Source of the DNA: Candidatus Zambryskibacteria bacterium RIFCSPLOWO2_01_FULL_39_39
GTDB lineage: Bacteria > Patescibacteriota > Minisyncoccia > Phycocordibacterales > WO2-35-19
Assembly (NCBI GenBank): GCA_001823925.1
Contig: MHWB01000002.1
Span: 2,376-60,869, forward strand
Direction: 5' to 3'
DNA length: 58,494 nucleotides
Part shown: one piece after another, positions 2,731 through 14,604 of the stretch
Numbering within the stretch: position 1 is the first letter of the stretch
How the letters are laid out: every line of letters begins with the position of its first letter
Made by a program: the position numbers and the translations under genes
Notes under the pieces: generated by a model
What the model was told of the DNA's origin: nothing
Databases searched by the model: none
What the model saw: only the letters and a program-made list of their open reading frames with translations

Positions 2731-3387
2731 TTAAAAGTTTTTGAACGGAATATTTAAATGGGTTAATCGAATTTCAAGAGCTTGTCTGGAAAGACCAAAA
2801 CGGTCTTCAAACTTCTGGAAGCAGTCGTTCAGGTTGAAAGGTAAGAGAGTTTGATCTTGGATAAAACTGAGTTCTCTAAGTATGATTTCCACATCTATTT
2901 TTGGTGCTAGGAGTGCTCCTGCATAAACATTAGCCTGCCACTCTCTACGCACATGCGCCATATCTAACTTCTTTATATTTTTTGATGGATCGGAATGCTT
3001 CCATCCGTTAATGAATCCATTTTTGGTAGAGAATAAAGGCCCGTGCAACGAGAGATGTCTGGCTTCATGGGCAACGGTGAATGAAATCCGCCTCTGGTTT
3101 GTACAGCTGTCATCGATCACCACCTGACGTGTCTCTGGCCGAAGAAAACCTAGAGTATCTTCTGCCTCTGAATCCTGCGGAATCGCTTCAAAACTGACGC
3201 TGAATCCCCAAAGTTCTTGAATGTAATTATCAACATCAAGAAGTGAAGGTGGATTTTTGCCATATTTTTCAGAATATATTTTTCGATACTTTGCCGTGTC
3301 GCCCAAAACCTGAGATTCGATCTCTTCTTTGGTGAGCTGGTATGTGTCAGCCATGGGATTCCAGTTTTTAGCGACTCTTACTTTCAT
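2731..3387 (-). CDS. ImmA/IrrE-family metallopeptidase (CapP-like)
   Basis: RISFTVAHEARH (HExxH) and EWQANVYAGALL motifs. Confidence 0.88.
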   Translation of the reverse strand: MKVRVAKNWNPMADTYQLTKEEIESQVLGDTAKYRKIYSEKYGKNPPSLLDVDNYIQELWGFSVSFEAIPQDSEAEDTLGFLRPETRQVVIDDSCTNQRRISFTVAHEARHLSLHGPLFSTKNGFINGWKHSDPSKNIKKLDMAHVRREWQANVYAGALLAPKIDVEIILRELSFIQDQTLLPFNLNDCFQKFEDRFGLSRQALEIRLTHLNIPFKNF

Positions 3388-3719
3388 AGTTTTTTCTTCT
3401 TAGTCTTTCGGAATAGAAGGGGTTGCGGTTCAAATGCAATGCCGCTTTTTTGAGCACCAGCAATGATTTCATTCTCGAACCGCTCCTTGAAATATAGTTG
3501 GACAAGTTCTTCGTATTCATTTGTGGAAAGAGAATATCCATTTTTCACTTTTTTTAGGAAGTCTATTGATGGCAGAGCCCCCGCTTCAATTTTGCTAATA
3601 TAAGCGTAAAAATGCTTTCCAAAATGTGGCTCCAACTCTTTGTCTAAGCTTCTGGTACTTCGACCTGGAAAGTGAATTTCTCTTAATGACCTTATTTTAT
3701 TTTTGAAATTTTCGTTCAT
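3384..3719 (-). CDS. XRE-family HTH regulator (CapH-like)
   Basis: KIRSLRE...AYISKIEAG..PS pattern; coupled (4-bp overlap) to the IrrE-like peptidase. Confidence 0.7.
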   Translation of the reverse strand: MNENFKNKIRSLREIHFPGRSTRSLDKELEPHFGKHFYAYISKIEAGALPSIDFLKKVKNGYSLSTNEYEELVQLYFKERFENEIIAGAQKSGIAFEPQPLLFRKTKKKKL

Positions 3720-3754: not shown

Positions 3755-3853
3755 CAATAAAGGTCTCGACAAATAATATATTTTATTTTCTATTACTAAA
3801 TAGTTCGAATCTCGCCACCATCGACTTTTTAGAGATTTTTGGACATCAAAAAG

Positions 3854-3906
3854 ATGGCTCAAAATATAGGCCTCGGCATAGTCCGATACTAAAAACTAAA
3901 GGCGGA
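3854..3906. repeat. Direct repeat copy 1 (att-like), followed by a degenerate tRNA 3'-end remnant
   Basis: 52/53 identical to 7324-7376. 3901-3930 on the minus strand reads GCTGAGGGTTCAAATACTCAAGCTTCCGCC, resembling a tRNA T-arm/acceptor end. Confidence 0.9.
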
Positions 3907-4063
3907 AGCTTGAGTATTTGAACCCTCAGCATAGCCTCGGCGCTATACGGCCTAAAATATAGTTATTTTTGAAACTCATTTTACTGTAAACAATTTTATT
4001 TGCTTTAAGTCTTACAATCTAATATAATCTCCTATACTCATAGTATGAGATTAACCATATTTT

Positions 4064-5119
4064 ATGGACTATAAATTCAACAAAAGATTGGAAGATTTGC
4101 CTCAATCAATCTGGCAATTAATAAACCAGATTGATGAGATTAAGGGTAGATGGATAGGTGGAGCGGAACTAAATCCACAGGCTTTGGGGCGTCTTAAAAA
4201 ATCAACACTAGTCACTTCTACCGGCGCTTCTACTCGTATTGAAGGCGCCAAACTTTCTGACGAAGATGTGGAGAAATTAATGCGTGGTCTTACCATGCAA
4301 AAATTTAGAGATAGAGATAAACAAGAAGTTAAAGGGTACTACGAGCTTCTCAATAATGTTTTTGAGGCATGGAAAAACATTCCATTTTCTGAAAGTACCG
4401 TAAAACATTTTCACAGAGAACTTCTTAAGTACGTAGAAAAAGACGCGTCCCATAGAGGAGAGTATAAAGGAGTAGAGAATAAAGTTCACATGATTGATGA
4501 AGCTGGTAATTCTATCGGTATACTTTTTGATACCACTTCGGCATTTTTGACTCCCAAAGAAATGCTTGAGTTGACAGAATGGGCACAGCAAACTTTGGCC
4601 GAAAAAGAAGTTCATCCTTTATTAGCCATTGGAAACTTTCTAGTTGAGTTTCTTAATATCCACCCATTTCAAGACGGCAATGGGCGGCTTTCCCGTATCC
4701 TCACAAATCTTCTTATGCTCAAAAATGGCTACCCATACATGCCATATATTTCTCACGAAAAATTAATTGAAGATAATAAAGCTGATTATTATGTAGCTCT
4801 GAGAAGAAGTCAAAAAACTATAAAAACGGAAAAAGAGGATATTACTCCCTGGTTAGAATTTTTCTTGACTATCTTGCTTGAGCAAGCCAAACAAGCTATT
4901 GATCTATTATCTAAAGAAAATATTGAGCTCATTATTTCTCCAAAACAGCTTGTGGTATGGAAATATCTTGAATCTGTAATAGAGGCTACCCCAGGAGAAA
5001 TATCAAAAAATACCAAAGTATCCAGACCAACAGTCTCCCAAGCACTAGATGTTTTGATGCGTCTCAAAAAGGTGAAAAGAGTTGGACAAGGAAGAACGAC
5101 GAGATATAGCAAAATATAA
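4064..5119 (+). CDS. Fic family protein with C-terminal winged-HTH
   Basis: HPFQDGNGRLSR Fic motif; N-terminal STRIEG matches the (S/T)xxxE(G/N) inhibitory motif; C-terminal GQGRTTRY wing. Confidence 0.93.
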   Translation: MDYKFNKRLEDLPQSIWQLINQIDEIKGRWIGGAELNPQALGRLKKSTLVTSTGASTRIEGAKLSDEDVEKLMRGLTMQKFRDRDKQEVKGYYELLNNVFEAWKNIPFSESTVKHFHRELLKYVEKDASHRGEYKGVENKVHMIDEAGNSIGILFDTTSAFLTPKEMLELTEWAQQTLAEKEVHPLLAIGNFLVEFLNIHPFQDGNGRLSRILTNLLMLKNGYPYMPYISHEKLIEDNKADYYVALRRSQKTIKTEKEDITPWLEFFLTILLEQAKQAIDLLSKENIELIISPKQLVVWKYLESVIEATPGEISKNTKVSRPTVSQALDVLMRLKKVKRVGQGRTTRYSKI

Positions 5120-5121
5120 AT

Positions 5122-7263
5122 ATGATCCAGATCAGTGATGATCAGATAAATTTGTACCTATCCATCTTCAAAGGAAGGAGCGACATCTACGCTAGACACT
5201 GGGAGAAAAATGGCAGATCTGGGTATAGCCCAGCGTACTCATTTAACTGGGATGAATTTTTAATTCACAAACAGAAGGGTGGAACGATAAATAGCTTTGG
5301 GAATAAAAAATTAATCCCACTCACAAAAGATATTATCAAGAAGCACTTGCTCGGGGTTACTCTTTTGGGTATATACCCAATTCTTGAAGATAACACGTCG
5401 TATTTTATTGCCGCCGATTTTGATGGAGAAAATTGGTTGGAAGATTCAAGAAAGTATATTGATGTTTGTAAAAAGGTGGGGCTAACAACGTATCTAGAAA
5501 GATCAAAATCTGGTAACGGAGGTCATGTTTGGATTTTTTTTCAAGAAGCATACCCGTGTTACAAAAGTCGAGCTATCGCTACTGAATTAATCAGGCAAGC
5601 TTTAGACTTATCAGTCTTTGAAAAAGAAGTTAGTTTTGATCGGCTCTTCCCAAACCAAGATTCTATACCTCAAGGGGGATTTGGAAATCTCATAGCTTTT
5701 CCGCTTCAAGGAAAATATTTAGGACAAGGCAATTCTGCTTTTATTGATCCTTATACTGTAAAATTGCACCCCGATCAGTGGGAGTTTTTATCTAAAATTC
5801 ACAAACATACAACAGAGGAACTCGATAAAATATTTTATGAAGTAACTGACAATGAAAAAGTTGTCGTACAAAAAAGAAAATCTGCAGACAGGCTGGTAAT
5901 AACTGTCGGCAAAAATATACAAATACCAAGATCAGAACTTGCTCCTGCGACGGTTACATTTCTCAAAGAAAAACTAAACTTTTTAAGCACTGAATATTTG
6001 ACCAGGAAAAGATTAGGTAAGTCGGTATATAAAGTCCAAAAATATTTCAAACTAATCGAAGAATCTGGAGATAATATTTTTCTACCGAGAGGATTCCTGA
6101 ATCAGCTTACGTCTTTTTTAGAATCAAACGGCATAAAATATGAGGTCAATTGTGGGTACCCAGAAATGGAAAATGTTAAATTTAAGAGTCTGATTAAGTT
6201 AACTCCACACCAAGAAGAAGCTCTGGAGAAATCCCTTAAACAAACTCAAGGGGTAATAGTAGCCCCGCCAGGAAGTGGTAAAACCATGATTGGTATGGAG
6301 CTTATCGCAAAGAGAGAATTACCGGCTCTGGTACTGGCTCATAGGAAGCAATTACTAGATCAATGGGTAGACAGGATTCAGACATACCTAAACATTCCAA
6401 AAATCAAAATCGGTACTTTCTCTGGTTCCAGAAAGAAAATTGGAAAAGAAATAACTGTCGCCCTGATGCAGAGTTTGGCAAGGTACAAAAATATTGCAGA
6501 ATTGGAAAATAAATTCGGGACTATCATCGTTGATGAATGCCATCATATACCAGCAAAAACTTTTAGAGAAGTTATTGCGAACTTAAATTCCCAATACTTA
6601 TATGGACTTACCGCTACCCCCAAAAGAAAGCATAACGATGAGCAACTTATTTATGTCTATATTGGAGATATTATTACAGAAATGGCGGGTGGTAATTTCA
6701 GTGAAGAAAACACAGAAAATACCTCTTCCAATAAACTCAAAGTCGTAATCAAGGAAACCGATTTAGAAATTCCGTTCCAATGGAAAACCGATAGATTTCA
6801 GCTTTTGGCTAAAATAATAAGTTTTGATACTGCTAGAAACAAATTGGTAACTGAAGATATTTTGGAACAAGTTAAAGTGGACAATAAAATCCTTGTTTTA
6901 AGCGAAAGGAAAGAGCATTTAGAAATTCTCGAACTCTGTCTTAAAGGTAAATGCGAAACGATTGTAATTTCAGGTGACGACTCTGCCTCAAAAAGAACCT
7001 CAAAACTCAAGCAAATTAATGACGGTCATTACAATGTTATATTATCCACCGGTCAGTTTTTTGGAGAGGGGTTAGATATTAAAAATATTTCAACTCTAGT
7101 TTTAGCCTTTCCATTCTCATTCGAAGGGAAGCTGATTCAGTATATTGGAAGGCTACTGCATAGTGCTAACCCTAAATTTGTTTTTGATTACAGAGACAAG
7201 AAGATAGCTTTTCTAGAAAGACAGTTTAAACAGAGAAATAGATACTACAAAAAGTTGATCTAA
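5122..7263 (+). CDS. AEP primase-like domain (TOTE-type) fused to an SF2 DEAD/DEAH helicase
   Basis: N-terminal FIAADFD, ERSKSGNGGHVWIFF, DRLFPNQD..GNLIAFPLQ; helicase APPGSGKT, DECHH, GLTATP, QYIGR. Confidence 0.85.
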   Translation: MIQISDDQINLYLSIFKGRSDIYARHWEKNGRSGYSPAYSFNWDEFLIHKQKGGTINSFGNKKLIPLTKDIIKKHLLGVTLLGIYPILEDNTSYFIAADFDGENWLEDSRKYIDVCKKVGLTTYLERSKSGNGGHVWIFFQEAYPCYKSRAIATELIRQALDLSVFEKEVSFDRLFPNQDSIPQGGFGNLIAFPLQGKYLGQGNSAFIDPYTVKLHPDQWEFLSKIHKHTTEELDKIFYEVTDNEKVVVQKRKSADRLVITVGKNIQIPRSELAPATVTFLKEKLNFLSTEYLTRKRLGKSVYKVQKYFKLIEESGDNIFLPRGFLNQLTSFLESNGIKYEVNCGYPEMENVKFKSLIKLTPHQEEALEKSLKQTQGVIVAPPGSGKTMIGMELIAKRELPALVLAHRKQLLDQWVDRIQTYLNIPKIKIGTFSGSRKKIGKEITVALMQSLARYKNIAELENKFGTIIVDECHHIPAKTFREVIANLNSQYLYGLTATPKRKHNDEQLIYVYIGDIITEMAGGNFSEENTENTSSNKLKVVIKETDLEIPFQWKTDRFQLLAKIISFDTARNKLVTEDILEQVKVDNKILVLSERKEHLEILELCLKGKCETIVISGDDSASKRTSKLKQINDGHYNVILSTGQFFGEGLDIKNISTLVLAFPFSFEGKLIQYIGRLLHSANPKFVFDYRDKKIAFLERQFKQRNRYYKKLI

Positions 7264-7323
7264 AATATTGAGTTTCGAATCCTCTCGCTATTGGTATATG
7301 AGATATTTTTACGCACCAAAAAT

Positions 7324-7376
7324 ATGGCTCAAAATATAGGCCTCGGCATAGTCCGATACTAAAAACTAAGGGCGGA
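7324..7376. repeat. Direct repeat copy 2, abutting the tRNA-Ser 3' end
   Basis: ATGGCTCAAAATATAGGCCTCGGCATAGTCCGATACTAAAAACTAA(G)GGCGGA, 3470 bp from copy 1. Confidence 0.9.
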
Positions 7377-7457
7377 GGGTAAGAGATTCGAACTCTTGGT
7401 GGGTTGCCCCACACCCGCTTTCCAAGCGAGCGCACTAGACCGCTATGCGAACCCTCC
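7373..7457 (-). tRNA. tRNA-Ser(GGA)
   Basis: GGAGGGT/ACCCTCC acceptor stem, anticodon arm CTCGC-TTGGAAA-GCGGG, long variable arm, GTTCGAATC T-loop, discriminator G; CCA not encoded. Confidence 0.95.
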
Positions 7458-7578
7458 ATAACACTCAAAATCGTAATTTACTTTACGACATATTAATAAT
7501 CTAACACTTAATTAAGCTTTTGAAAAATAGCCTTAAAATGAAAGGTTTAAGTGGTGTTTAGGGATACCTGTTTTTTAG

Positions 7579-7607
7579 TTGACAAGAAAGTTAAAAGGGT
7601 GTATAAT
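7579..7607 (+). promoter_or_regulatory. Consensus sigma70 promoter
   Basis: Perfect TTGACA-17nt-TATAAT upstream of the 7647 ORF, followed by an AAAGGGGA Shine-Dalgarno-like sequence. Confidence 0.8.
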
Positions 7608-7646
7608 AGGTGGTAGAGTAAATCGTTCCTTGAAAGGGGACAAAAA

Positions 7647-8723
7647 ATGACACAAGGGATTATCACCCATCCAAGGCCACATCTTGATGAGATCGTGGCG
7701 ATCTTTCTCCTCTCCCTTTATGGGGAGGAAAAGTATCCCGGAATAAGGGATGCTATTACCAACCGGAAGATTTTTGCTTGTCGCGTCGAAGATCTCGAGG
7801 CGACAGCAGAAGGGTACGAGCAGAGTGGCTACATCATGCTCGGGGTCGGCGGCGGACGGTATGATGAACATGGTGTCAATGGCGAGAGTCGCAAGAAAGG
7901 TGACTGTTGTGCCACCCTGGTTGCCAAAGATCTGGGTGTGGACAAACTCAGGGAACTTTCAAAGATCCTGAAGTTTGTCACCGGGGGTGACCTCAATGGC
8001 AACAGCCAGCCGTTCGATCTGTCGGCCTTGGTCGGCTTGATCAACGGTCAGTATCCGGACGATCCATTTCCGGCCATTGACTTCGCGTTTGCGGCACTCA
8101 ATGCCAAGTACGCGGAGCAATACGACTTTCATGTCATAGCAGGTGAGGAAGCCAAGAAGGCCACCGTGGAGGAAGTATTGACGGCATCTGGCAAGAAATT
8201 GCGGATAGTAACCGTCAAGACCGACTGCGAGGCGGTTGGCAAGTATATCCGTTCGGAGTACGGCGGTGGAGCTGACATCATCATTCAGAAAAATTCTCGA
8301 CGCCAAGTCCAGATTTTCACGGATAAGCGCTCGGGTCTGAACATGACCGACACGGCGCAGATCTTGCGTCTTGTGGAGCAGGAGTCCAAAGATCAGGAGG
8401 TGGTAACCAGCGACTGGAACCTTCTCGCCGGCGAAGGCAAGGTCATTGGAGCCGAAGAGTGGTACTTTTTCCCAACAGGGAACATGCTACTCAATGGTAG
8501 CTTAACCGCTCCCAACACCCCACCCACAAACATCGCGCTCCAAGATATCCAGAGCCTCGTCAAAATCGGGGTGAATGGCATGTTTGAACCGAGTCGGGAA
8601 CAAAAATGTAAGCAAGGAAACTGTTCGTCCCGGCGAGATGATGAGTGCAAGTGGTACGCTTTTGGACTCCAACGTTGTCGAGAAGTTCGGCGACTGGAAT
8701 ATCAAAGGCGACAAACTGCATGA
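7647..8723 (+). CDS. Putative MYG1/DHH-like metal-dependent hydrolase with Cys-rich C-terminus
   Basis: ITHPRPHLDE and GVGGGRYDEH resemble the MYG1 motifs THxxxxHxDE and DVGGxxD..H; visibly higher GC than its neighbours. Confidence 0.5.
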   Translation: MTQGIITHPRPHLDEIVAIFLLSLYGEEKYPGIRDAITNRKIFACRVEDLEATAEGYEQSGYIMLGVGGGRYDEHGVNGESRKKGDCCATLVAKDLGVDKLRELSKILKFVTGGDLNGNSQPFDLSALVGLINGQYPDDPFPAIDFAFAALNAKYAEQYDFHVIAGEEAKKATVEEVLTASGKKLRIVTVKTDCEAVGKYIRSEYGGGADIIIQKNSRRQVQIFTDKRSGLNMTDTAQILRLVEQESKDQEVVTSDWNLLAGEGKVIGAEEWYFFPTGNMLLNGSLTAPNTPPTNIALQDIQSLVKIGVNGMFEPSREQKCKQGNCSSRRDDECKWYAFGLQRCREVRRLEYQRRQTA

Positions 8724-8778
8724 TCATTTCTTAAAATCTCCACAGATTATAAAGTGAGAGCTCAAAGAGCCCCTTTCG

Positions 8779-8806
8779 AAGCTCACCTGAAATATGGTGA
8801 GCTTTT
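8779..8806 (+). terminator. Intrinsic terminator
   Basis: AAGCTCACC-8nt-GGTGAGCTT followed by a T-run, between convergent genes. Confidence 0.65.
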
Positions 8807-10014
8807 TATTTTAATGCCAAAAAGGCGTTTACAAAATGTATAGCGATGCCGCCAAAATTTGAATATGGTTTGAAAGCACTGTTGATATCTTTGACTTGTT
8901 TTTCAAAATATTTTTTGGGAGTGTTGTGAAAAGTGATGTATGGAGGAGGGACTTGTCCGGTCTCTTGGGCGATAATGATCTTGGTACGGTATCCGCCACT
9001 TTTTGCTGTTTCTATCTCGTTTTTTGATATCTCTATTGAGCCGTCATCGCCACCAGCAAAATTTCTGTAGGACATTATAATGATGGAGCTATCTCTCCTT
9101 CTCTCTAAAATATTTAGTAAATGTTTGAATACATAATCTTTTTTTCCATTGTATGAAAATTTGGGAGTCATCTCGTCTTTTTTGTCATAAAAATCTGGTA
9201 TGACCACAGAAAACCTGAGGGTATCATCGCCCAAAAAGTATTCTGTCTGGTCTACCAGTTTAACAAAATTTTTCAAAATATTGGCTTTACTCTCATCACT
9301 CTCGTTGTATGAATCTAAAAGGTATGGCTCGACATCATATTGAAAACCTCTAAATTTATTTTTGCGTTCAGCATTAAAATTTTTGATGTAGTTTACAACA
9401 GCAAAAGCTTTATAGACATTGTCATCCTCGGCCCAGTTGCGCCAACCAGCTTCGGCGTCTACTGTCATACCCTTTTTGTTGGCGCGGATAATAAAGTCTT
9501 CCAATATATTTCCGAAAACTTTTTTCTGCCTTTCTCTTTCTTCGCCTTTTGGCATTACAAATATATCTAAGTAGCTATCAATAGAGACATACATAGTGTT
9601 TACTCCATCCTTTTTTGCTTGAGAGAGTATAGACTCTATATACTGTGGAGTCATATTCATGATAGGTGTCCAAATCCAACTGCCGTATTCTTTGGTGTCT
9701 TCTGTTTTTTCTGATGTCGTAAATGTTTTGATGGCTCTAACTACTGTAGCTATTTGGTTAGAGAAAAATGAAGAATTTGTCTTTGTATTATTTATATCAA
9801 AAGCAATGTTTTTAAATTCTGGGTTGGTAGCAATCGCGTTTGCGTTTATATGATTATCAGAGTATTGGGATATTTTGGTATCTATTTGGTTTTGGTGGGG
9901 GACAAAATTTCCGCCTTCCACAAAAACAAATAACAAAATTATTGCGCTTGAAAAAAACACCAAACCCATAGCAAAAAATTTTTTGCTATTTTTATTTTTT
10001 ACTTTATTTCTCAC
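8806..10014 (-). CDS. Membrane-anchored exported protein, putative glycoside-hydrolase-like TIM barrel
   Basis: Start moved to GTG 10014 (TATAAT 6 nt upstream) because the longer ORF runs into tRNA-Val. N-terminal TM helix; GFQYDVEPY, IIMSYR and GGIAIH motifs. Confidence 0.55.
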   Translation of the reverse strand: MRNKVKNKNSKKFFAMGLVFFSSAIILLFVFVEGGNFVPHQNQIDTKISQYSDNHINANAIATNPEFKNIAFDINNTKTNSSFFSNQIATVVRAIKTFTTSEKTEDTKEYGSWIWTPIMNMTPQYIESILSQAKKDGVNTMYVSIDSYLDIFVMPKGEERERQKKVFGNILEDFIIRANKKGMTVDAEAGWRNWAEDDNVYKAFAVVNYIKNFNAERKNKFRGFQYDVEPYLLDSYNESDESKANILKNFVKLVDQTEYFLGDDTLRFSVVIPDFYDKKDEMTPKFSYNGKKDYVFKHLLNILERRRDSSIIIMSYRNFAGGDDGSIEISKNEIETAKSGGYRTKIIIAQETGQVPPPYITFHNTPKKYFEKQVKDINSAFKPYSNFGGIAIHFVNAFLALK

Positions 10015-13371: not shown

Positions 13372-14604
13372 ATGAAAAAGATATTACTTAGTCTTGGGTC
13401 CATACTTTTCGCAGGGGCGATCCTTGCGGGCGCAACGAGTGCGTTTGTTATGGATACAGAAAAAAGTACTGGTAATACTTTTGCATCCGGAGTTATAGAT
13501 CTCAAAGTAGATAACGAAAGTTATGTGACGGACGAGAATGGAAAGTTGGTTTTCAGTCCTTCTACTTCTTGGGACCTCTCGGGACTGTCAGGGAAATTGT
13601 TCTTCAATTTCCTTGACATAAAGCCGGGGGATATCGGAGAAGATACAATAAGTCTCCATGTAAACAACAACAATGCTTGGGCTTGTATGAATATAAATCT
13701 TACAAGCACTCCAGAAAATGGAGTAAACGAGCCAGAGGGGTTGGTAGACAATACAGTCGGCCCAAATCAAGGAGAGTTGCAAGAACATCTTTACTTTGTT
13801 TTTTGGGCAGATGATGGAGACAATGTGTATGAAAAAGGAGAAAAGATATTCAAAAAAGGTTTGTCCAAAGATATATTCAACGGTGAGCCTTGGACACTGA
13901 CAGATTCAGAGACAAGTATTTGGGCAGGAAGTTCTGGTTACGCCTATCAAAATGGTAGCTGGAAATACAATAATACTTGCAGAAACGGTGATCCTATACC
14001 GGGAGGTTCTACTAAGTTTATAGGCAAAGCATGGTGCTTTGGAGATATAAACGAGAATCCTCTAAATCAGGATGGTAAAGGCAAAACCCCTTCGAATTCC
14101 TCAGGACAAGTGGACAATGGTCCACTTGTGAGAGGTACAGGATTTGTCTGCGAAGGCAGTGATGTGGGGAACATCGTACAGAGTGATGGTATTGGATTGG
14201 ACGTAACATTTACTGCAGTCCAATCTAGGGGCAATGAGAATTTTGTGTGTGGCGATGAAGACGAAGGAGAAGGCGGTAACGAATATTGCTCTCACGGATA
14301 CTGGAAGCAAAAGCAACACTTTGATAGTTGGGTAGGCTTCGGCCCTAATCAACAGTTCTCTTCTGTTTTTGAAAATGCTTTTCCAGGAAAGACCTTGTTG
14401 CAAGTATTGCAACTTGGAGGGGGAGGGCTAAATAGGCTCGGAAGAGAGACAGTGGGTGCACTCCTTAATGCGGGTTCCGTAGACTTCCCTCTTACCCAAG
14501 CTGAAGTTGTGAGTATGTTTAATACAACATACCCAGGCTCTCTAGACTCTTATGACACACTAACAGAAATGTTTGCTCTACCTGAAAGTTGTCCATTAAA
14601 TTAA
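13372..14604 (+). CDS. TasA/CalY-like protein with SipW-dependent signal peptide and a distinct C-terminal (GYWK..LLNA) domain
   Basis: ATSA|FVMDTEKSTGNTFASGVIDL; same KPGDIGEDTISLHV, WADDGDNV and GKAWCFG core as its neighbours. Confidence 0.85.
   Translation: MKKILLSLGSILFAGAILAGATSAFVMDTEKSTGNTFASGVIDLKVDNESYVTDENGKLVFSPSTSWDLSGLSGKLFFNFLDIKPGDIGEDTISLHVNNNNAWACMNINLTSTPENGVNEPEGLVDNTVGPNQGELQEHLYFVFWADDGDNVYEKGEKIFKKGLSKDIFNGEPWTLTDSETSIWAGSSGYAYQNGSWKYNNTCRNGDPIPGGSTKFIGKAWCFGDINENPLNQDGKGKTPSNSSGQVDNGPLVRGTGFVCEGSDVGNIVQSDGIGLDVTFTAVQSRGNENFVCGDEDEGEGGNEYCSHGYWKQKQHFDSWVGFGPNQQFSSVFENAFPGKTLLQVLQLGGGGLNRLGRETVGALLNAGSVDFPLTQAEVVSMFNTTYPGSLDSYDTLTEMFALPESCPLN

Follow-up and report, generated by a model that had tools for sequence, protein, structure and literature searches.

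Tandem modules with defence genes behind a tRNA-Ser gene in a Zambryskibacteria genome: a candidate array of large serine recombinase elements

We analysed a 58,494-nucleotide stretch of DNA (the window; contig C2, positions 2376-60869) from Candidatus Zambryskibacteria bacterium RIFCSPLOWO2_01_FULL_39_39, an ultra-small groundwater bacterium of the Patescibacteria whose genome (G000; relatives are labelled G004, G008 and so on) comprises 800 kb in 13 contigs with 39% G+C and is 98.9% complete. Two predicted defence systems are stacked here behind one tRNA-Ser(GGA) gene. These are a cyclic-oligonucleotide-based antiphage signalling system (CBASS) and a pair made of a SoFic-like Fic gene and a gene fusing an archaeo-eukaryotic primase (AEP) to a helicase. 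With a probability of roughly 60%, we read the locus as an accreted tandem array of a family of large serine recombinase (LSR) elements that dock at tRNA 3′ ends in Patescibacteria. The array would consist of one autonomous module with CBASS as cargo and one recombinase-less module. Genomes of Patescibacteria are smaller than 1 Mb, and little is understood of how anti-phage genes are acquired and exchanged in them. A limited literature search found no published description of tRNA-targeting LSR elements in Patescibacteria (the Candidate Phyla Radiation).

The anatomy of the locus can be read directly from the DNA. An intact tRNA-Ser(GGA) gene (7370-7458, minus strand; ARAGORN; Rfam tRNA 51.6 bits) anchors the array, and two copies of a direct repeat (3854-3906 and 7324-7376) bracket a 3.47-kb cassette with the Fic and AEP-helicase genes and no recombinase. 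A first-pass annotation of the window had called this repeat near-perfect and placed its conserved 46 bp outside the tRNA. Both statements hold: 52 of the 53 bases are identical, the sole mismatch being A3900 against G7370, and copy 2 runs only 7 nt into the tRNA gene as called, its other 46 nt lying downstream of the tRNA. Copy 1 consists of a 46-nt spacer of the attachment-arm (att-arm) type (3854-3899), with a TATCGG-type arm at a fixed T-loop distance, followed by AGGCGGA, while the repeat alignment resolves copy 2 into the 46-nt spacer and the final 7 nt of the tRNA gene.

The 53-mers sit within a longer, gap-free direct repeat of 123 nt (3804-3926 and 7274-7396) with 77% identity and a spacing of 3470 bp. 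In its profile the 46-nt core is perfect and the outer 50 nt are about 60-65% identical. The outer, diverged parts, L1 of copy 1 (3804-3853) and L2 of copy 2 (7274-7323), each begin with the T-loop-like motif TTCGAATC (3804-3811 and 7274-7281). This motif had been listed as a feature of its own about 50 bp before each copy. Its position is confirmed at exactly 50 nt, and the common register with the 53-mers makes the two motifs parts of one extended repeat, not independent features.

Two is the copy number of the repeat in the whole genome. Further 46-mer copies were to be sought left of the window and across the contig; blastn-short of both copies against C2:1-3000 returned only chance 8-16-mers, and the contig holds none beyond the two. 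Searching the whole genome with the tRNA end, with the remnant described below and with L1 plus the 46-mer, we likewise obtained chance 8-16-mers only. A 26-nt junction motif was present in 5 genomes of a family sample of 39, so it is not a general native flank.

The candidate recombinase lies just outside the window. The first-pass annotation had reported no integrase, and for the window this is correct, since no serine recombinase match was found in the window part of the contig; a tyrosine integrase (PF00589) is absent from all of C2. Nonetheless, an LSR gene at C2:996-2324 ends 52 bp before window base 1, at the far end of the island, where a recombinase was to be sought. It encodes a full-length protein of 442 aa with Resolvase, Recombinase and Zn_ribbon_recom domains (Pfam, above cut-off) and the N-terminal serine motif YARKSTE. 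The gene reads towards the tRNA-Ser, yet 7.4 kb, made up of CBASS and the Fic cassette, lie in between. The CBASS operon occupies the place between the LSR and repeat copy 1, with the stop codon of its E2-like gene 9 bp from the LSR stop codon. CBASS had been taken for an older repeat-delimited cassette, which it is not: copy 1 borders it on one side only, and the LSR stop lies at its other end.

We checked how regularly such recombinases adjoin tRNA genes. In a class sample of 401 genomes, 149 had LSR matches at E<=1e-30, and close orthologues (55-73% identity) were spread across many families. For 29 relatives' loci, each turned so that the LSR lay on the plus strand, we surveyed a flank of 1.5 kb. 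A convergent tRNA gene stood 68-1344 bp past the LSR stop in 18 of them, where chance would put one, on that strand, in about 4% of cases (an estimate from roughly 40 tRNA genes per 800 kb). Eleven of these were tRNA-Ser genes with the anticodons GGA, GCT, TGA or CGA; the others were Asp, Arg or Lys. The remaining 11 loci had no tRNA in the 1.5-kb flank. The source genome carries four further LSR paralogues (C8:48370-49344, C12:24685-25698, C1:35480-35764 and C6:7862-8890), three of which adjoin a convergent tRNA, namely Ser(GCT), Ala and Tyr. The tRNA-adjoining paralogues lie mostly near contig ends, and LSR elements probably cause many of the assembly breaks.

The sequence between LSR and tRNA links the window repeat to this family. 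Short LSR-tRNA spacers hold a terminator hairpin and inverted arms of the TTTTTATCGG / CCGATAAAAA type, with about 8 nt to the tRNA end. When we anchored an alignment on the T-loop, TATCG fell at an equal distance in 9 of 11 tRNA-Ser rows, in one of two tRNA-Asp rows and in both window copies. By this fixed distance, the window 46-mer (...GGCCTCGGCATAGTCCGATACTAAAAACTAA, then the tRNA) belongs to the class of LSR-tRNA spacers. The earlier idea that modules are stacked at the tRNA, each with the same end sequence, is borne out to this extent. One relative, G130, has on contig C8 an element with both ends: a block of 26 identical bp occurs twice, 15.6 kb apart, and is made of the last 19 nt of a tRNA-Ser (from mid-T-loop) and 7 nt beyond the tRNA end. 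Both the arm and the LSR are on the tRNA side of that element. In 6 of the 29 loci, 0.7-1.3 kb lie between the LSR and the tRNA-side arm.

Beside copy 1 stands a remnant that travels with the Fic gene. This pseudo-tRNA-Ser 3′ half (remnant Y, 3900-3950, minus strand) has a hairpin like the variable arm of tRNA-Ser, a TTCAAAT pseudo-T-arm and an acceptor-like strand, AGCTTCCGCC; it gave no Rfam tRNA match at E<=1. The first-pass annotation took it for a decayed copy of the neighbouring tRNA. The two differ in the loop (TTCAAAT against TTCGAAT of the tRNA-Ser(GGA)) and in the acceptor strand (AGCTTCC against ACCCTCC), and to judge from these letters the remnant is tRNA-Ser(CGA)-like and no copy of its neighbour. 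Over 66 nt it is 95% identical to a remnant on contig C6 of the congener G004, which has a Fic gene on one side and 27 nt of the 46-mer on the other, the whole group standing behind tRNA-Ser(CGA). As the remnant is kept with Fic in other genomes, it came with the cassette and is not a product of decay at this site.

The comparison with G004 extends to the whole array. Its Fic gene is 90% identical to that of the window in protein and 81% in DNA, and further ORFs (open reading frames) common to the two genomes reach 40-65% identity only. Five kb further along, G004 has a 125-bp LSR 3′ fragment (80% identity), and between this fragment and the remnant stands a PEP (phosphoenolpyruvate)-utilizer/PPDK (pyruvate phosphate dikinase)-like cluster, at the position held by CBASS in G000. 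The two genomes thus have a common order (LSR, variable cargo, arm plus remnant, Fic, tRNA-Ser) at different tRNA-Ser genes. The search of related metagenome-assembled genomes (MAGs) that had been advised shows in this way that the Fic module moved horizontally between tRNA-Ser(CGA) and tRNA-Ser(GGA) loci. It also suggests that the two modules were transferred jointly between tRNA-Ser genes after they had joined; joint movement of neighbouring islands is proposed for Dehalococcoides in the available text of PMC3146451. At the start of the G004 LSR fragment, GGCCTCGGCATAGG was considered as a third 46-mer-like copy and rejected, since it aligns within degraded LSR sequence. At the same locus (L052, G004:C6, about 13530-13560), a 14-bp perfect palindrome, GCCGAGGCCTCGGC, overlaps a 46-mer-like motif where the LSR homology starts, and may mark a deletion or recombination joint.

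From this arrangement we infer which enzyme acted, in what order the modules arrived and where the crossover lay. The older, tRNA-distal module would be an LSR element with CBASS in the cargo slot between the LSR and its tRNA-side arm, which is repeat copy 1. The younger, tRNA-proximal module would be the recombinase-less 3.47 kb, ending in the same arm (repeat copy 2) and in the pseudo-tRNA end. The ends of the Fic module recreate the T-loop-like motif and then, 25 nt on, GTATCGGA, with a spacing equal to that of the real tRNA; together they would imitate the end of a tRNA with the arm behind it. Either at this locus or in an ancestral array, an LSR may have acted in trans and inserted the Fic module by recombining the module's own att with the tRNA/arm junction of the resident element. 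The insertion would have displaced the CBASS/LSR module from the tRNA, the two arms remaining behind as direct repeats. Trans insertion at the tRNA/arm junction would yield exactly the observed order and the two direct repeats.

Taking this one step further, we tentatively consider the Fic and AEP-helicase genes a hitch-hiker cassette whose pseudo-tRNA-Ser end and recombinase arm form a portable docking site, which we regard as possible though on balance doubtful. Any resident tRNA-targeting serine recombinase could then insert the cassette behind any tRNA-Ser and later shuffle it. If this were true, defence-gene cassettes would be exchanged through a serine recombinase and tRNA mimicry, in functional parallel to integrons and by an unrelated mechanism, and possibly as the main route of defence-gene turnover in the ultra-small genomes of Patescibacteria. 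Were trans insertion itself true, short defined att sites beside a universally conserved gene, together with a compact 442-aa recombinase, would be of interest to mobile-element biology and to genome engineering.

Recombinase-less cassettes recur in relatives, and it is here that a reading by homologous recombination has to be weighed. Homologues of the AEP-helicase occur in 8 of the 401 genomes. In G361 (L045) the helicase (69% identity) is paired with Fic (77% identity), and the pair is flanked by a 16-nt perfect repeat and an att-like repeat of about 27 nt (acceptor-like CCGCC, then AAGAAC-TTTTTTATCGA). A remnant-like pseudo-T-arm stands upstream of Fic, with no tRNA nearby. In G129 (L047) a distant Fic (27% identity) and a helicase (61% identity) lie directly behind tRNA-His, flanked by a 48-nt repeat (92% identity) that combines the final 4 nt of this tRNA with the tRNA's flank. 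Behind tRNA-Ser(GGA) in G008, a repeat of about 80 bp surrounds a recombinase-less 2.9-kb cassette and takes in the last codons of a host P-type ATPase gene. The congener G015, also at tRNA-Ser(GGA), has an 11-bp acceptor-stem repeat around a recombinase-less 3.6-kb cassette and a tRNA-side flank without the TATCGG arm. A degenerate 24-nt pattern scan hit only 5 stretches in genome contigs and 6 in metagenome contigs, mostly from genomes already under study, with one new cassette among them, of about 1 kb behind tRNA-Ser(GGA) on a metagenome contig (L057). Cargo does vary between relatives, as the first-pass annotation had invited us to check: there are a Fic-only cassette, a cassette with cyclodipeptide synthase (CDPS) and methyltransferase genes, and ORFs of no assigned function.

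Instead of a recombinase, homologous exchange could have assembled the array. A Fic/AEP-helicase circle would have looped out of a relative's array through the flanking repeats and re-entered by a single RecA-type crossover in the tRNA-Ser flank of about 120 nt, with no site-specific enzyme; the repeats would then be merely duplicated homology. LSRs normally recombine unlike attP and attB sites, which leaves only a few identical bases. The 46-53 identical bases of the window are atypical for LSRs and speak for homologous exchange, as does the profile of the repeat, whose perfect core and less conserved outer part fit a crossover in the best-conserved stretch. In G008 the repeat takes in a piece of a host ATPase gene, which a dedicated att site would hardly contain. 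Moreover, G129 (99% complete) and G008 (85% complete) have repeat-flanked cassettes and no Resolvase-domain match in their assemblies. Against homologous exchange, the TATCGG arm stands at a fixed distance as it does beside LSR genes across families, the G000 and G004 copies are at different tRNA-Ser genes, and a unit of pseudo-tRNA plus arm is kept at the other end of the cassette in three genomes, which simple homology capture does not require. We consider homologous exchange unlikely overall.

The reading as an LSR array has further points to answer, besides the long identity and the assemblies without a Resolvase domain. Its LSR module is seen in part, the far end lying beyond the contig start. 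Among 13 larger LSR loci just one has a far-end repeat and the other 12 have none; none of the 6 relatives' loci whose LSR and tRNA lie 660-1350 bp apart showed a repeated spacer. In addition, a variant of the TATCGG motif is found in the distal flank of the G130 element, and the motif by itself is thus no proof that the element brings the arm. Finally, no excised circle or empty site was seen in the k=31 contigs available as run data, which end 30 nt into both 46-mers and cannot bridge the repeat.

That last point bears on a possible assembly artefact, by which the array would be mimicked by an empty site with the 3.47 kb as a free circle, or by a repeat that was collapsed or wrongly joined. 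We aligned the k=31 contigs of four runs (three of the 13 best holder runs and one low-share run) to C2:1-12000. Depth was equal across the modules, and all four flank contexts were present. Both results are compatible with an integrated arrangement as well as with an empty site plus circle, the 53-bp repeat not being phasable by such contigs. A joint from 6620 to 9746 in run X13 (side 26, 90% likeness) fell below the reliability limit and was disregarded. Several observations contradict an artefact. Both copies lie within one continuous MAG contig, and a repeat of 53 bp is short enough for ordinary reads to cross. The copies differ outside the core, which speaks against a single collapsed sequence. 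Contigs of three further runs, which come from three studies, have these contexts at 100% identity, and G004, G008, G129 and G361 have the same kind of bracketed cassette. The artefact fits the data poorly, and we hold it to be extremely unlikely.

A tyrosine-integrase island at the tRNA whose integrase was lost also fits poorly and is, in our judgement, very unlikely. The remnant would be the displaced 3′ part of the tRNA and the repeat a long attL/attR block. In the available part of a 2014 survey, a tRNA gene (tDNA) and a same-orientation 3′ tDNA fragment around foreign DNA form the standard signature of Islander islands, and tandem arrays make up 125 of 3919 islands (PMC4383910). The 11-bp acceptor-stem repeat and arm-less flank of the G015 cassette would suit such an origin. 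In the source genome, by contrast, PF00589 matches are confined to contigs C11 and C8, the identity between the copies lies almost wholly outside the tRNA, and the remnant departs from the local tRNA in loop and acceptor strand and is common to cassettes elsewhere. Compared with the islands described in that part of the survey, where LSRs were not known to target tRNA genes (PMC4383910), the sole recombinase at our locus is of the serine type and the fragment is no copy of the target.

The reading as an LSR array can be set beside known systems. The first-pass annotation had called the array integron-like. A stack of exchangeable cassettes that is anchored at one site and has a recurring recombination sequence at the cassette borders is indeed shared with integrons. 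The label does not fit in other respects: the contig has no IntI-type tyrosine recombinase (PF00589) and no attI/attC hairpin sites, whose place is taken by a 123-nt tRNA-flank repeat, a tRNA serves as the anchor, the modules hold several genes in both orientations, putatively with promoters of their own, and the candidate enzyme is an LSR. Staphylococcal cassette chromosomes (SCC/SCCmec, with CcrAB or CcrC) enter one after another at the 3′ end of a single conserved gene, rlmH/orfX. Direct repeats of about 15-18 bp stand between the units of SCC arrays; the recombinases are inside the element, and some units depend on a neighbour's enzyme. On our reading, serial serine-recombinase units, direct repeats and recombinase-less units are common to SCC and our locus; a comparison with SCC is also drawn in the available text of PMC3146451. 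SCC elements target a protein gene and our array sits at a tRNA, and homology between the two was compared at the level of shared Pfam domains only.

Judging by likeness in layout, the Dehalococcoides ssrA islands are the closest printed analogue. According to the available text, tandem islands lie there behind the transfer-messenger RNA (tmRNA) gene, bounded by a 20-bp repeat of its 3′ end (PMC3146451, McMurdie et al. 2011). A CcrB-like serine recombinase, DsiB, stands beside the gene-proximal att and reads towards the gene, insertion is near the T-loop or the 3′ end, and some islands without an integration module are proposed to be cis-mobilizable and to move by accretion (PMC3146451). Tandem units behind a tRNA-like gene, an LSR in the array and a recombinase-less unit are found in both cases. 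As far as that text goes, our locus differs in its target (tRNA-Ser and not tmRNA), in its repeat (53 bp, of which 46 are outside the gene, against 20 bp inside ssrA), in its anti-phage cargo and in its Patescibacteria host; beside the LSR here we saw neither a second, small serine recombinase nor an integration module of the ParB type. Prochlorococcus tycheposons, as the available part of bioRxiv 10.1101/2020.12.28.424599 describes them, have tyrosine recombinases in 910 of 937 cases and an LSR in 27. They sit side by side at tRNAs with partial tRNAs between them, newcomers pushing older ones inward (10.1101/2020.12.28.424599). The likeness to our locus, within that part of the source, lies in tRNA-anchored islands in a streamlined genome with primase/helicase genes aboard. 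Their boundaries are partial tRNAs, whereas ours is a flank repeat, and the AEP-helicase here is a superfamily 2 (SF2) fusion of the TOTE conflict-system type. What the present locus adds is a recombinase-less cassette in tandem that has moved between the genes of tRNA-Ser isoacceptors.

The cargo genes were assigned with Pfam and PADLOC. CBASS lies on the minus strand and is complete, with the cyclic oligonucleotide synthase, the nucleotide-sensor effector and accessory genes all matched (PADLOC). Its E2-like (Cap2-type) gene covers 1-660 of the window (whole ORF C2:2334-3035; PADLOC E2 models E 4e-22). It is joined by the synthase, a cGAS/DncV-like nucleotidyltransferase (CD-NTase; 654-1568; Pfam SMODS 1.4e-06, PADLOC Cyclase 4e-70), by a Cap5-like effector with an HNH nuclease and a SAVED sensor (1579-2727; Pfam SAVED 2e-43, PADLOC Effector/Endonuclease 4e-160) and by a CapP-like M78 metallopeptidase regulator (2731-3387; Pfam Peptidase_M78 3.5e-06, PADLOC capP 1.5e-09). 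A small ORF upstream of the CapP-like gene (3384-3719, minus strand) has a weak HTH_3 match (E 0.1) and is possibly a CapH-like helix-turn-helix regulator. G+C is 41-44% in CBASS and 35-37% in the Fic/helicase cassette.

The Fic gene (4064-5119, plus strand) encodes a SoFic-like protein with a C-terminal winged helix (Pfam Fic 1.4e-14, PADLOC SoFic 4e-43). The PADLOC match spans residues 50-348, and the catalytic motif HPFQDGNGRLSR at residue 200 is intact and fits HxFx(D/E)GNGRxxR. With domain, motif and model match all present, it is a predicted single-gene SoFic defence system. Next to it, the 713-aa fusion of a TOTE-type AEP primase-polymerase and an SF2 (ResIII/DEAD) helicase (5122-7263, plus strand) scores 3e-79 for AEP-TOTE, 9e-31 for ResIII and 2e-11 for Helicase_C in Pfam, and 2e-65 for PrimPol in PADLOC; its role may lie in defence, not in replication. 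Fic and the AEP-SF2 helicase were adjacent and co-oriented in 3 of 7 genomes with a full-length or near-full-length helicase match (45-100% identity), and the pair may be an undescribed two-gene defence system. Elsewhere, the AEP-helicase adjoins restriction-modification genes (G420 and G130) or an unannotated 266-aa ORF and a gene of the 2′-5′ RNA ligase family (G414). The modules of two and five genes are on opposite strands, each preceded by a long non-coding upstream region that could house a promoter of its own.

The outer motif of the 123-nt repeat may have arisen in two ways. L1 resembles an inverted, degenerate stretch from the tRNA-Ser T-arm to TTTTTAG (score 28, equalled by 1 of 500 shuffles), and the score of inverted L2 against the tRNA side was equalled by 27 of 500. 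Compared directly with the pseudo-T-arm of the remnant, L2 scored 22 (14 of 500 shuffles), and a second direct figure for L2 was 49 of 500. The outer TTCGAATC may be an inverted spare copy of the att region or, in the case of L2, may instead copy the remnant's pseudo-T-arm in direct orientation. Either way the alignments score just modestly above shuffles, and the two origins are not separable because TTCGAA is its own reverse complement. A 12-codon mini-ORF in the 46-mer and an RNA reading were dropped; Rfam at E<=1 gave the tRNA and one chance match.

A few further observations concern the recombinase loci and cassettes of relatives. LOOT RNA (Rfam RF03000, 50-64 bits, above the gathering score), an orphan structured RNA, occupies four of the six wider gaps (about 0.7-1.3 kb) between LSR and tRNA-Ser (L078, L080, L085 and L088), right after the LSR stop codon; it appears to be a regular passenger of these serine-recombinase elements. 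At L048 (G414:C35, 3788-4033), a fragment of the last 80 LSR residues lies beside tRNA-Val, a few kb from the AEP-helicase, and is a relic of a recombinase tail at a tRNA. An 85-nt element occurs behind tRNA-Ser(GCT) at L028 (G010:C7, about 6056-6140) and behind tRNA-Ser(GGA) at L057 (about 1295-1380). It starts with GGCGGAG and ends with CTCCGCC, an acceptor-like pairing of 7 bp around a long hairpin, and is followed by a TTAGTTTTTAGTATCGGA arm. ARAGORN called no tRNA in it, and it is a tRNA-shaped att relic or a small RNA. Lastly, on the 5′ side of the window's tRNA-Ser, an ORF of 358 aa (7647-8723, plus strand) had no match in Pfam or PADLOC; it has 52% G+C where the genome has 39%, and may have been acquired as well.

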